Positions 51,043 through 54,526 of a DNA stretch of 64,000 nucleotides are shown here, one piece after another. The stretch is taken from NCBI RefSeq assembly GCF_003790525.1, contig NZ_CP033635.1; one strand, written 5' to 3'. Numbering within the stretch: position 1 is the first letter of the stretch; every line of letters begins with the position of its first letter. The stretch is from Escherichia coli (GTDB lineage Bacteria; Pseudomonadota; Gammaproteobacteria; Enterobacterales; Enterobacteriaceae). The notes under the pieces were generated by a model. It was not told where the DNA came from and ran no database searches. It worked only from the letters and a program-made list of their open reading frames with translations. The position numbers were made by a program, and so were the translations under genes.

Positions 51043-52685
51043 GATGAGAGATCTCCGTTGATTTGGATTGACTTCACATCATTAATCACCGCGGTAAAAC
51101 TTTACGGCATCCGGCATTGAGCAATGCTACAACTCTCTGATTAAGAGTGATTGAAACGGAACAAACCATCCCGGAACGAAAAGATAATTCTACACGCAGG
51201 GTAAAAACACTCAAGAACAGCGAATGGATTTAAAAACGACATGGACAACGAGAAAAGTCAGAAGGGAAAAGGATCCACAGAACATTCGAACAAAACACCA
51301 GAAACGCAACCAGAACGCTTCCTGGTAATGCAAATCAACAACAACCCCAAAACCTACAGCTTAATCACACAACTCAATCACGGATGTGAATGACACGTTT
51401 AAAACCTGTTTACAGATAAACCCCGCCACAAGAACAAAAATCACCAACATCAGAATCGATTTTCTCATCCTGAAAAAGTTACGTTTCACTACGCACCATA
51501 AAAACGATTAACCATCGATAACGTAAACCTTATCTGAATCAAAAACACCAAAACCGTTCATCACACTTTCGCAATGCAAGAAGAAACCTCATGACAAAAA
51601 GAATGACCTTACACGGAAAAGAAAACGTCAGGAATCGTTAATGCCTCAATCTGATTGTTATCAAAACATCCAGAAAGTCGTTTAACAGAATCGTCGTAAG
51701 CACATCGAAAAAAACGTCAGATTACTTCAGGAAAGTTCGGGTTGATTTAGCGTAAAGATACTTTTCTCATGCTAACGTCGAAACTCGAAATCTTAGGAAA
51801 GGTTAAACGTAACATCAGTAAAATCGAATAGCAGATTGATTGCTGAAGCAGAAAGGTTTTACAGCAGCATTAAACTGATTTAGTTAACGTAAAGATTTAC
51901 TAAACTGGATGTGTATAGCAATGCTTAACGAAAACAATTGTAGAAGTGTTTATGAAAATACGTGTATAACACTTACTGAAATGCTTAGTAAAAATACTTA
52001 GTAAAATATGTGTATATAGTATCATACCGACATTCTCAACATCTTCAGACTTCCATACATACTGGGTGTTAATTTTTCACTTTTACAGCCAGCATGGAGT
52101 TTTCTGTCCTAAAAACAGAGCAGATTTACTCTGGAATTATTTTTCTGCCCTCGTATTTCAGGCCCCAGAAAAGACAATCCGAAGCAAACCGTTTGTCAAC
52201 CTCCATATCATCTTTTACCCCCGGAAAGTGATCGCGTTTTACAACCAGAATGACAGCCATACTGATTATGTCGTCTCCCGGCCCCCTTCACATATAACAT
52301 GCATGTCTGTCATTGCTTACTGCTCTACATGACAGGATTTCACATACAGGATGCGCATTCAGTGTTTTTATCGCCACTATAACAGACAGATTACTGTCGC
52401 TTTTACTCTTCAGATTGTTAATCTGACCACAAGAACAGTCGAACAGTACAACGACACCCCCAAGGAGAATATGAGCCGTAGTTGATAGCATGTTTTATTT
52501 TATTATGAATAGGTCAAGAAATAGTTCTTGATATGTCTGGAATAGTTTTGTGAATAGTTCTAGAATATCCCCATAATCAGCTTTGAAGTGCTTGCAGGGT
52601 GATATTTTTATTGATCCCCTTGCATATACAACTGACATGTGATGGTGAAAATCACCAGAAAAGAAAACGATTGAGGCGTAATCAG

Positions 52686-53474
52686 ATGAAACAATATAAA
52701 GGCGGTTATAACGTGAATAGATATGACTGGAAAAATAAAACAACTGAGCATTTATTGAATGATAATAATCTGGCAGATAATCACATACCTGAATGGATCA
52801 GAAAAAATGAAATTGCAGCATTCTGGTTCTGGTTAATTATGTCTCATACAGTTCCCGAAAAACTTAAACTTAATAATGAATCTGAGTTCAACTCTGCCTT
52901 GAAGGGGGTGATCGTTATGAAGGATAACCCCATGACAATTATTCCTTCAAGTCATGAAACACGACTGAATGTTATAGGGAAATGGATTAATGCGTTAATC
53001 CTTTATGGGGAAGCAGATCGGATTATCTCAATAATGCATCAAAACTGGCTGGGACTCGAAAAGAGAAACGAAGCCAAATGGCTTAAAAAGAATACCGAAC
53101 AACTGAAATGGGCATGGGAATATATTGATGCACGTATCTCACCCACATATCTTTCCTGGTTTAATCCTGTAAATGATAACGAAAGATATATTGCCATTGT
53201 AGTTTTACTAAAAATGTTATTCCCCACAGACACACCCTGTTTACTGACGCCAAAAGAATTTCACCTAGGATTCGCTGCAAAAGAAAGATTTTTCGACAAG
53301 ATGCACAATGCATTCAGAAAACAGTTTATCGATGGAAAAAAAGATAAACGGGTACAAATCAACGTAAAGATATCGCCATCCGCAAAAAGCGCTCTGGACA
53401 GACTGACCAGAGAGCGGAAAACAACACAGCAGGCTATTCTGGAACAACTGATTCTGTACGGTAGACTGGATTAA
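52686..53474 (+). CDS. Hypothetical protein with C-terminal ribbon-helix-helix-like segment
   Basis: ORF 52599..53474, likely start MKQYKGGYNVNRYDW...; C-terminus ...RVQINVKISPSAKSALDRLTRERKTTQQAILEQLILYG; low GC. Confidence 0.4.
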   Translation: MKQYKGGYNVNRYDWKNKTTEHLLNDNNLADNHIPEWIRKNEIAAFWFWLIMSHTVPEKLKLNNESEFNSALKGVIVMKDNPMTIIPSSHETRLNVIGKWINALILYGEADRIISIMHQNWLGLEKRNEAKWLKKNTEQLKWAWEYIDARISPTYLSWFNPVNDNERYIAIVVLLKMLFPTDTPCLLTPKEFHLGFAAKERFFDKMHNAFRKQFIDGKKDKRVQINVKISPSAKSALDRLTRERKTTQQAILEQLILYGRLD

Positions 53475-54424
53475 CTTTCACCACTTTCGCTCCTGGCGAT
53501 TTTCTTCTTTTTGTAGTGTCTGCTTGCTGCGGGCATCAGGTATTTTTCCGTCATTTTGTTGCAGAACGCTTCAATGTAGTTAACCATTTTCTGGTGTGCT
53601 TTCACCTTTTCCTCCCCAGGGGACATTTTCAGATAAATGTCCTCCTTTTCCACAAGTGCATTTATAAACTCCTCTAAACATCCCTGGTTATAAAGCGACG
53701 TGAAAAACAACACATTCCCCAGTCTCTCCAGTAATTGCGATTTAACCCTGTATTGTTGTTTTCTGAGAATTGATTGTTTTCTAAAGCTCAGTCTTGTTAA
53801 AAGTTGTTCAAATCTTGGTTCAAATTTAAAAACAGATTTTAATCTTAGGGATTGATACTCCTGATAAAACAGTTCAAACGTCGGGGATGCTGACCGAAGA
53901 ACAGGTCGGGCCACAGCCCGTGGACTAAATCCCATGACTGAGATTTCCTTTCCCTCCTCCTGCAAGTTCAGAGGCAGTTCAGCAATCCATGCGTCCAGCT
54001 TAGCTGAATCGCTCTCCTTTCTCAAAACCTCATACAAACTGCCCGTGAACGGTTGAGCCGATTTTGGGGTTGCTTCACCTTTTGACTGTCTGAATCCATC
54101 CACTTTTCTCCGGATACTACGCGGAATCAGCATAAAAGGCGGGGCATTAAGAGATAAATGTTTACCAGTCATACGATGGCATTGTCCCACCTCGATCCAA
54201 CAGGAAAATTTACTAACCGACCTTATCTTAAGCGCAATTATGTTAAGCAGGTACAGATAACGCACCGTATAACGATTAAAATGTTTCTCAGGATCAAACG
54301 ATTCTGACCGTTCCCCTCTGTACACAAGTCCACTACGCTTCAGTATTCGCTGGGTATCTTTCCAGGCCTGACTTTTACAAATGCTCATTCGGCGTAGCGT
54401 ATTAATCGACAGTGATGCCATCAC
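53471..54424 (-). CDS. Hypothetical protein (317 aa), convergent with 52686..53474
   Basis: Long ORF, basic, low GC; no recognisable motif; 3' ends of the two genes overlap by 4 nt. Confidence 0.4.
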   Translation of the reverse strand: MMASLSINTLRRMSICKSQAWKDTQRILKRSGLVYRGERSESFDPEKHFNRYTVRYLYLLNIIALKIRSVSKFSCWIEVGQCHRMTGKHLSLNAPPFMLIPRSIRRKVDGFRQSKGEATPKSAQPFTGSLYEVLRKESDSAKLDAWIAELPLNLQEEGKEISVMGFSPRAVARPVLRSASPTFELFYQEYQSLRLKSVFKFEPRFEQLLTRLSFRKQSILRKQQYRVKSQLLERLGNVLFFTSLYNQGCLEEFINALVEKEDIYLKMSPGEEKVKAHQKMVNYIEAFCNKMTEKYLMPAASRHYKKKKIARSESGES

Positions 54425-54526
54425 TCCTCCCGAACTTTGTCACTCCAGATTTTTTCACGCCCATATTACCTGAATGATAAACCGGATTAGTGTGATCCGG
54501 TTCAGTGAAATCAACAGGATACCGGT

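Follow-up and report, generated by a model that had tools for sequence, protein, structure and literature searches.

Our analysis concerns positions 51043-54430 of a 64,000-nt stretch of the Escherichia coli contig NZ_CP033635.1 (RefSeq assembly GCF_003790525.1); the whole stretch is called the window below. The block lies inside a CP4-type integrative island, between a YagK/YfjJ-like gene on its left and a YeeP/YfjP/YkfA-like GTPase gene on its right, and consists of a long gene-free leader followed by two convergent open reading frames (ORFs), ORF1 and ORF2 (Table 1). The alignments and profile comparisons described here indicate that, in the island lineage of the window, this slot holds diversifying alleles of two specific protein families, which we tentatively read as a control module of the island.

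A preliminary description, written from the sequence alone, had called the block visibly lower in guanine and cytosine (GC), and the computed values bear this out: 0.395 across 51043-54430, below the 0.501 of the full window, the 0.512 of the left flank and the 0.538 of the right one. The block is the GC minimum of all 3,388-nt stretches in the 64 kb, and the 0.7% of such stretches with equally low GC all overlap it. A second low-GC patch (0.36-0.40) at 45000-46000, upstream of the island's regulatory module, holds YadA-like adhesin and sigma-factor-like genes. The slot was also correctly said to be flanked by the YagK/YfjJ-like gene and the YeeP-like GTPase, and to contain two convergent genes with a 4-nt overlap of their 3' ends, which is the TTAA palindrome that provides both stop codons. 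The second gene is real, with one correction: the end given for it, 54424 (317 aa), corresponds to a GTG one codon upstream of the RefSeq start at 54421. Its product is basic, as had been noted (isoelectric point, pI, of 9.9), and so is that of ORF1 (9.5). The leader is indeed devoid of ORFs: no open stretch in 51043-52685 exceeds 62 codons, and each frame of the initial 1.1 kb is interrupted by about 20 stops. It is not a single unit, however. Its gene-free first part (51043-52147), hereafter the leader core, is a 1.1-kb segment of the island backbone, and the remaining 538 nt (52148-52685) form a promoter/operator region that is specific to the cassette beyond. The RefSeq accessions of both proteins were taken from the identical locus in strain TUM1886; this locus is part of an island that also carries aerobactin and sit genes, along with numerous insertion sequence (IS) remnants. 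Between diverged copies of the two genes, the ratio of nonsynonymous to synonymous substitution rates (dN/dS) is 0.43-0.64, from which we conclude that both are real, fast-evolving genes; a dN/dS of 0.3-0.5 was also obtained for ORF1.

Table 1. Features of the block and of its borders, with the four types of slot occupants (RHH, ribbon-helix-helix; positions refer to the window unless another locus is named).
Feature	Coordinates	Strand	Basis and remarks
YagK/YfjJ-like ("inovirus Gp2 family") gene, left border	50311..51042	-	ORF; WP_023155732.1
Leader core	51043..52147	.	Alignment of islands; non-coding, A-rich, AT-rich backbone segment, 1,105 nt
Copy-number-variable repeat array in leader core	51905..52020	+	TRF, motif positions
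Hypervariable allelic cassette	52148..54447	.	Left limit from leader alignment, right limit from alignment of the GTPase upstream region
RAATAGKT direct repeats	52507, 52519, 52540, 52552 (52507..52559)	+	Exact matches
Sigma-70-like promoter candidate for ORF1	52548..52577	+	TTGTGA, 18-nt spacer, CATAAT; consensus match only
ORF1	52686..53474	+	262 aa; WP_000816188.1; RefSeq "hypothetical protein"
ORF1 domains	52686..53474	+	Trp-rich N-terminal domain without known fold and C-terminal RHH-like segment (family alignment)
RHH-like segment of ORF1 (residues 225-257)	53358..53456	+	VQINVKIS, then SAKSALDRLTRE, then TTQQAILEQLIL
TTAA palindrome	53471-53474	.	Stop codons of convergent ORF1 and ORF2, 4-nt overlap
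ORF2	53471..54421	-	316 aa; WP_000157733.1; RefSeq "hypothetical protein"
Conserved backbone control region between ORF2 and GTPase gene	54448..54526	.	Near-invariant in all four slot types
YeeP/YfjP/YkfA-like GTPase gene, right border	54527..55411	+	ORF, RefSeq, GTPase models
Slot type A			ORF1 and ORF2, as in the window
Slot type B	L003 6483-7706	-	407-aa gene
Slot type C	L004 6493-7623	-	376-aa gene
Slot type D		+	345-aa gene, plus a 64-aa ORF

The variable part of the slot begins where the leader core ends and extends to ~54448, from where the last ~80 nt before the GTPase start are again conserved. The four types of occupants (at ≥80% coverage) are unequally represented in the 5,426 complete E. 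coli genomes compared: type A, the pair of the window, in 514, type B in 967, type C in 458 and type D in 72. Profile comparison identified types B and C as distant homologs of ORF2, and type D as a distant homolog of ORF1. With HHalign, type C matches the ORF2 profile at a probability of 97.7% (E 1e-12), and type D the ORF1 profile at 98.9% (E 4e-17), its C-terminal ribbon-helix-helix (RHH)-like segment included. Because every alternative occupant in E. coli is distantly related to ORF2 or ORF1, we describe the slot as a hypervariable allelic cassette. The 64-aa minus-strand ORF of type D is not supported as a remnant of ORF2. Types B and C share a Cys-rich N-terminal extension (K..C.....C.N.V........RLC..HY) that is missing from the ORF2 of type A; its sequence might be that of a zinc ribbon and, more speculatively, this N terminus might substitute for the DNA-binding partner in alleles that consist of an ORF2-like gene only.

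These results change the earlier picture of a slot for variable cargo. Content does vary between related islands, but the E. coli alleles are remote homologs of the same two families instead of unrelated genes, and the word cargo is misleading for a pair that stays syntenic and convergent even where its copies share just 21-40% identity. Nor do the proteins lack homologs, as had been thought: both families reach Salmonella, Citrobacter, Hafnia, Serratia and Klebsiella, as uncharacterised proteins. The statement that the equivalent slot of CP4-57 in E. coli K-12 holds rnlAB was right, and abpAB and yfjM are found there as well, the interval from yfjJ to yfjP reading abpBA, yfjM, rnlAB. True defence cargo is therefore possible at this slot in a related lineage. 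The K-12 proteins YfjH, YagM and YfjM were ruled out by comparison as relatives of ORF1 or ORF2.

The reach of the two families became apparent with profiles. Word-indexed searches with ORF1 and ORF2 returned homologs in Escherichia only, an exhaustive profile search gave some 16 further full-length ORF2 clusters at 23-30% identity, and the ORF1 profile reached Serratia, Salmonella, Citrobacter and Klebsiella. The scan of genome contigs with the ORF2 profile concerns one locus only and is not a taxonomic survey; contigs with distant ORF2 homologs carry a divergent GTPase gene, the ORF2 homolog, a convergent ORF1 homolog, alpA and a YagK/YfjJ gene. The ORF1-like partners at two such loci are 27% (L013, E 2e-22) and 26% (L016, E 3e-11) identical to ORF1. 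Both genes occur together at eight loci, where they are convergent in all eight, at identities of 21-70% for ORF1 and 29-77% for ORF2, and the pairwise identities of the two proteins correlate (r = 0.72). Their 3' ends overlap by 4 nt at half of these loci (the window, L006, L007 and L013) and are 13-121 nt apart at the others. The position of the pair is constant, between the alpA/YagK module and the GTPase, and in distant islands 370-720 nt separate the ORF1-like genes from a divergently oriented alpA. Neither gene was present in 50,697 phage records, and among 72,556 plasmid records just 2-4 contain either one, on records that carry fragments of islands. No text that describes these proteins came up in our full-text literature searches, which covered their accessions, yeeP, ykfA and yfjP, and islands with RHH or AlpA proteins.

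The families are not always paired. In the Klebsiella pneumoniae complex (at least 90 contigs, for example L019 and L020 at 7001-8089), a lone ORF1-family protein of 362 aa is encoded between a divergent alpA and the GTPase gene, which is co-directional and starts 72 nt downstream, with no ORF2 homolog. This bears on the idea that the two genes stabilise the island as a toxin-antitoxin or addiction pair in which the RHH protein would be the antitoxin. They are adjacent, co-inherited and fast-evolving, the CbtA/CbeA module of the island shows that there is selection for stabilisation, and RHH domains are typical of type II antitoxins. Still, we find this reading very improbable. The genes are convergent at eight of eight loci, thus neither in the same orientation nor co-transcribed, the proteins are large (262 and 316 aa) with the RHH at the C terminus, and the two families do not co-occur obligatorily, since ORF2-like genes stand alone in types B (967 genomes) and C (458), about 1,400 genomes in all, and ORF1-like genes stand alone in type D and in Klebsiella. 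Furthermore, an IS3-family or IS2 element lies within ORF1, beside an intact ORF2, in several complete genomes (for example L005, 5321-6549, NZ_CP158426.1), and in strain NRZ14408, ORF1 is disrupted by an IS and ORF2 is intact. This is not expected upon loss of an antitoxin, and it means that ORF1 is dispensable for viability even beside ORF2.

The preliminary description could place neither protein in a family and had noticed an RHH-like C terminus in ORF1, and both statements stand. When ORF1, ORF2, the proteins of types B, C and D and the distant homologs were compared with Pfam, NCBIfam, PHROGs and PADLOC, nothing was found beyond sub-threshold RHH matches, located in that segment, and one marginal PADLOC winged-helix match (E 0.0025) to the Klebsiella ORF1-like protein. 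In Pfam, ORF1 scores E 0.14 with RHH_1 and E 0.32 with RepB-RCR_reg, below the family thresholds, and in NCBIfam it reaches 14.3 bits with PRK13702, for which the cutoff is 87. Over the 19 members of the ORF1 family, the best E value for RepB-RCR_reg is 4.6e-5, with four members at E ≤0.1, and three members are at E ≤0.1 for RHH_1. The C-terminal profile, when compared with the PDB, pairs in register with CopG (E 0.3) and Reg576 (E 1), and in the pattern displayed by the family alignment a strand with alternating hydrophobic residues, VQINVKIS, precedes two amphipathic helices. The C terminus of ORF1 is probably an RHH DNA-binding domain, a view to which these matches and this pattern lend moderate support. 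The Trp-rich N-terminal domain (~205 aa) has a core with invariant W37, R93, W132 and E166, and neither the PDB profile search nor the family alignment revealed a known relative of it.

A possible target of this domain, and our strongest hint at function, lies just upstream of the gene. All exact matches to RAATAGKT in the 64-kb window, four in number, fall within one 53-nt stretch on the strand of ORF1, where they overlap the -35 element of the sole promoter-like site upstream of ORF1. The support for the motif is its recurrence at other loci, not its statistics in the window. At L007, where ORF1 is 70% identical, RAATAGKT is found four times at an exact spacing of 11 bp and was independently detected by TRF; L018 (ORF1 51% identical) and L013 (27-28% identical, with the RHH strand VQINIKVS) each have two copies 11 bp apart. 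The ORF1 homologs at the loci that bear the motif share the RHH strand VQINVKIS or VQINIKVS. At L010, which has a different RHH strand, four copies of GAAAACC are found in place of RAATAGKT, and L016 and L019 have other local repeats. The motif thus tracks the RHH strand although the N-terminal domains of these proteins are only 27-70% identical. Since the motif follows the putative DNA-reading strand while the rest of the protein diverges, we propose that ORF1 may bind the RAATAGKT repeats at its own promoter.

ORF2 is harder to place. A first AlphaFold2 (AF2) model, made with 17 close homologs, was unusable (pLDDT 51), and the addition of distant homologs raised the score to 83.6, with a pTM of 0.83. 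The resulting model is mostly alpha-helical: residues 1-115 (pI 10.7) form an alpha/beta region at the N terminus, and a helical domain comes after it. In Foldseek comparisons with AFDB50 it found only uncharacterised members of its own family (from Hafnia, Salmonella and Citrobacter) and no structural neighbour outside it, Pfam gave no match for any member of a 22-sequence ORF2 alignment, and sequence-profile searches of the PDB gave nothing significant. As modelled, ORF2 cannot be assigned to a known family or fold. Its own family is basic and is marked by the motifs S.AW.NTQR.LKRSG, IVP..IRRK..F.Q, GSLY, SPTF.LL.LEC.RLG and LGNALFF.LLY, with invariant Arg-Lys (R106/K107), Tyr (Y131, in GSLY) and Glu (E189, in LEC.RLG) positions. 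Within E. coli, its N-terminal half is near-invariant and its C-terminal half comes in exchangeable, modular variants. Because ORF2 starts ~25 nt inside the cassette, its promoter should lie in the conserved region that it shares divergently with the GTPase gene.

There is a small chance, perhaps, that ORF2 and its relatives of types B and C represent a new fold with a new activity on nucleic acids and that, together with the RHH partner, they form an unrecognised, diversifying system of exclusion or defence between elements, or a master switch of mobilisation. If true, such a system would be carried by about one-third of E. coli strains and by related enteric islands. More generally, the preliminary description had guessed at an anti-phage or regulatory function. 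The regulatory half of this guess fits the data better, and the anti-phage half has gained no positive evidence. An undescribed defence or exclusion system against phages or other mobile elements, in which ORF2 would be an effector or sensor of new fold and ORF1 its DNA-binding regulator or partner, is in our view unlikely. Such a system would suit a cassette that varies strongly between islands, evolves fast and has a low GC content, with two basic proteins and modular C-terminal halves of ORF2. Its precedents are also close: the syntenic interval of CP4-57 in K-12 holds two proven defence systems, AbpAB and RnlAB (PMC10732053), and related Gp2/AlpA/RadC islands of Pseudomonas mostly carry defence cargo (PMC12595487). 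On the other hand, PADLOC-DB 2.0.0 (a 2023 release that does not cover newer systems) gave no defence match for ORF1, ORF2, the proteins of types B, C and D or the distant relatives, bar the marginal one mentioned above. The alternative occupants of the slot are homologous to the same two families instead of being unrelated systems, synteny down to 21-40% identity suits a backbone function over mobile cargo, and a convergent, non-operonic order is unusual for two-gene defence systems.

The leader core is a feature of the island backbone, not of the cassette. With identities of 76-100%, it occurs in 1,876 of the 5,426 complete E. coli genomes, up to eight times in a single genome. It is almost never annotated and always abuts the start of the YagK-like gene irrespective of the type of cassette beyond. 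Its plus strand is rich in A (0.38, with T at 0.25). The first ~70 nt are invariant and are likely the 5' region of the YagK-like gene, for which a consensus scan gives a promoter-like site at 51214-51187. Further along, GTGTATA occurs three times, ~50 nt apart, interleaved with two copies of CTTAGTAAA, in an array with a period of 12-13 nt whose units are gained and lost between islands (the counterpart in L007 is at 5941-6006); from its sequence, it may be an iteron-like binding array for some backbone protein. K-12, phages and the distant islands that have retained ORF1 and ORF2 yielded no homolog of the leader, and its matches in plasmid DNA are island fragments only. Gene-free gaps of 0.4-1.2 kb recur upstream of ORF1-like genes in distant islands without the leader core. 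We see the leader core as an AT-rich part of the backbone, made of control and spacer DNA, and silencing of the H-NS type is a reasonable inference from its composition.

Other identities of the leader were considered and rejected. It is not a decayed gene, given ~20 stops per frame, indels that are not multiples of three and six-frame translations without NCBIfam match. It is not a structured RNA either: Rfam had no match over 51043-52685 at the gathering threshold and only chance-level matches at an E-value threshold (the best, STnc550, at 18 bits for a gathering score of 48), folding z-scores are mostly within about ±1, and the plus strand is notably unstructured. A strongly constrained element is ruled out, as an identity of 79-83% is lower than the 85-95% of the flanking third codon positions in five of the seven islands compared. 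Some local features deserve mention. The heptamer AACGTAA occurs 20 times in the window for 5.6 expected, a count reached in none of 100 shuffles, and four of its copies lie inside the 1.1-kb leader core (51479-51892). The leader of L006 has a (CATCAC)n hexanucleotide expansion (~5390-5430) where the window has ACAAAAATCACCAACATCAG. A hairpin flanked by A and T runs (52116-52133), terminator-like on both strands, sits exactly at the junction of leader core and cassette, with a stem that is poorly conserved between islands.

Another reading is that the block is largely inert, namely H-NS-silenced, AT-rich and decaying foreign DNA in which both ORFs are selfish hitch-hikers that serve neither the island nor the host. 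Its GC is the lowest in the window, the leader changes faster than synonymous sites in most comparisons, IS elements insert in the block, and dN/dS is relatively high. Yet, hundreds of genomes have both reading frames intact, as do other genera in which identity is down to 21-40%, dN/dS is clearly below 1, and motifs and repeat arrays are conserved, which makes inert DNA an improbable explanation.

The long non-coding region directly upstream of a gene of the Gp2 family (REP_ORF2-G2P) might also suggest a module for mobilisation or replication, where the leader would contain an origin (an oriT, or one used by the Gp2-like protein for rolling-circle replication), ORF1 would be an RHH accessory protein of the TraY/NikA/TrwA type bound to this origin, and the GTPase, DUF932, antirestriction and RadC genes would be a leading region. 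Ff phages have an intergenic origin region upstream of gene II, RHH proteins are common accessory factors of relaxosomes, the leader has an iteron-like array of variable copy number, and the downstream genes resemble those of plasmid leading regions. We nevertheless judge this improbable. The leader core lacks strong structure and outpaces neighbouring synonymous sites in most comparisons, it is absent from distant islands that keep ORF1 and ORF2, and its similarity to plasmids comes from island fragments only. The ORF1 repeats lie at the gene's own promoter, outside the leader core, and no evidence of a nick site or relaxase was found.

The surroundings of the block identify the type of island. 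The assignment is based on the RefSeq annotation of the identical locus, the YagK/YfjJ similarity, GTPase models and comparison with the K-12 islands, and the backbone comprises AlpA, YagK/YfjJ, the YeeP/YfjP GTPase, DUF932, antirestriction (KlcA/ArdB-like), RadC, CbeA/CbtA and DUF4942 genes. The YagK-like protein is 30% identical to YfjJ (E 1e-26) and 29% to YagK (E 6e-25) of K-12; K-12 yagJ has an equal length, yet it is unrelated. The YagK-like gene is transcribed away from the leader; a 200-aa gene and then alpA (49077-49313) come after it in the same orientation. ORFs at 48328-49122 and 49382-49984, both on the minus strand, show weak YagK/YfjJ similarity (E 0.009 and 0.014), so the island may carry several diverged Gp2-like paralogs. 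On the other side, the GTPase gene heads a co-directional array of DUF905, DUF932, antirestriction, RadC and CbeA/CbtA genes. The ~80-nt region upstream of its start contains a perfect palindrome, AACCGGAT-N7-ATCCGGTT (54480-54502), which by its sequence is a candidate operator or hairpin in the 5' untranslated region of the GTPase operon. Elsewhere in the island, a ProQ/FinO-family gene (~47799-48310, plus strand) is split by a frameshift; it is annotated as a pseudogene in identical loci and is intact in L010 (WP_000258199.1). A full-length match to the Hfq-binding small RNA STnc490 (RF01405, 133.7 bits) lies at 22584-22705 on the minus strand, and a group II intron (Rfam RF00029, 64 bits) at 17590-17676 on the plus strand, where the island is rich in IS elements and has an ltrA reverse-transcriptase pseudogene next to the intron.

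From the anatomy, homology, synteny, repeat arrays and fast evolution of the block we infer the DNA binding, autoregulation, ORF1-ORF2 interplay and target genes of the following model, in which the block would be the control region of a CP4-type integrative island in three layers. In the first (51043-52147), a non-coding backbone spacer would hold the repeat array and the promoter region of the leftward string of the YagK-like, 200-aa and alpA genes. The second (52148-54447) would be an allelic cassette swapped between islands via recombination in the conserved flanks. In the third, ORF1 would be a DNA-binding regulator whose C-terminal RHH binds the RAATAGKT repeats over its own promoter, leading to autoregulation. 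From its place on the far side of the leader, divergent from the alpA-containing genes, ORF1 could act as the lineage-specific switch or immunity repressor of the island. ORF2, a basic helical protein, would be its functional partner, for instance a co-regulator or an antagonist, expressed from the conserved promoter region shared divergently with the GTPase operon. As the two genes overlap tail to tail, each transcript must enter the other gene, and such convergent transcripts would couple the expression of ORF1 and ORF2 negatively.

We hold the view that the cassette is a lineage-specific regulatory or immunity module with a confidence slightly short of even. The conservation of the pair, its fixed position, the homologous alleles, the RHH signal, the repeats that track it and the confinement to one type of island would all favour a regulatory module. 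Genomes have up to eight copies of the leader, and co-resident islands would therefore presumably benefit from regulators that do not cross-react; the dN/dS of 0.43-0.64 and the modular C-terminal half of ORF2 fit specificity determinants.

Several observations weigh against this interpretation. All RHH matches of ORF1 fall below family thresholds, and ORF2 has no recognisable DNA-binding or enzymatic fold. The count of RAATAGKT in the window is circular, because the pattern was defined from the same repeats. The motif was not found near the promoters of the YagK-like gene, ORF2 or the GTPase gene; confined as it is to the ORF1 promoter, it suggests autoregulation only, not a wider regulon. 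The families also occur singly (ORF1-like genes in Klebsiella and type D, ORF2-like genes in types B and C), hence their partnership is not obligatory. Finally, CP4-57 and CP4-6 of K-12 lack both families, and K-12 also lacks the leader, which means that this type of island can exist without ORF1 and ORF2.

A regulatory module of this kind would have partial parallels among known systems. In its predicted succession of beta-strand, helix and helix, ORF1 resembles the RHH repressors CopG of pMV158, Arc and Mnt of P22, omega of pSM19035, ParG, and CopB/RepA of R1-type plasmids, and like the operators of omega, CopG and Arc, its putative operator has tandem direct repeats about one helical turn apart over its own promoter. 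It differs from these repressors in that the RHH is at the C terminus of a 262-aa protein with a large N-terminal domain, and in that no match reaches a family threshold. As predicted from sequence, this architecture, an unplaced large N-terminal domain with a C-terminal RHH, is unprecedented, and its membership of the RHH family is not established by score.

The immunity regions of phages and satellites (cI/cro, immI of P22, stl/str of SaPI and the face-to-face promoters of P2 and 186) offer another comparison. There too, a regulator is divergent from excision or activator genes (here alpA), hypervariable mosaic alleles are exchanged as cassettes, and convergent units could interfere with each other. 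The likeness, known from sequence, is in logic only: ORF1 and ORF2 have no relation in sequence or fold to the regulators of these regions, ORF2 is unlike Cro, antirepressors or Str, and a 1.1-kb spacer separates the divergent units here. With the defence hotspots (yfjJ-yfjP of CP4-57 with AbpAB and RnlAB, and those of P2 and P4) the block shares the syntenic position in CP4-57 and the variable, low-GC content between conserved flanks, but its occupants are homologous alleles of two families without a known defence match. The tmRNA-associated islands of Pseudomonas that have IntY, AlpA, Gp2-like and RadC proteins move by transduction with jumbo phages (PMC12595487). They are alike in having a backbone with a tyrosine integrase, AlpA, an inovirus Gp2-like protein and RadC, and no transfer machinery of their own; by their description they are set apart by host genus and backbone, and proteins like ORF1 and ORF2 are not described there (PMC12595487).

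Overall, our results describe a control cassette of a mobile element, as we infer its function, with one protein family of unplaced fold. Few mobile elements of E. coli are as common as CP4-type islands, and many pathogenicity islands contain their backbone, which here has aerobactin and sit genes next to it. To our knowledge, little has been established on their control beyond AlpA. A stretch annotated as hypothetical is now defined as an allelic cassette with mapped borders, two uncatalogued protein families, a candidate operator and a candidate repressor. Should neither the regulatory nor the defence reading be true, it would be well-mapped but ordinary fast-evolving island DNA. If the pair were a defence or exclusion system, it would add a new fold to that repertoire and would explain the presence of AbpAB and RnlAB in the K-12 slot. 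A regulator is the most likely answer, one that would not surprise a specialist, and if ORF1 is the repressor of the island, it would provide a handle on its excision and on the expression of the operon of antirestriction, RadC and toxin genes.

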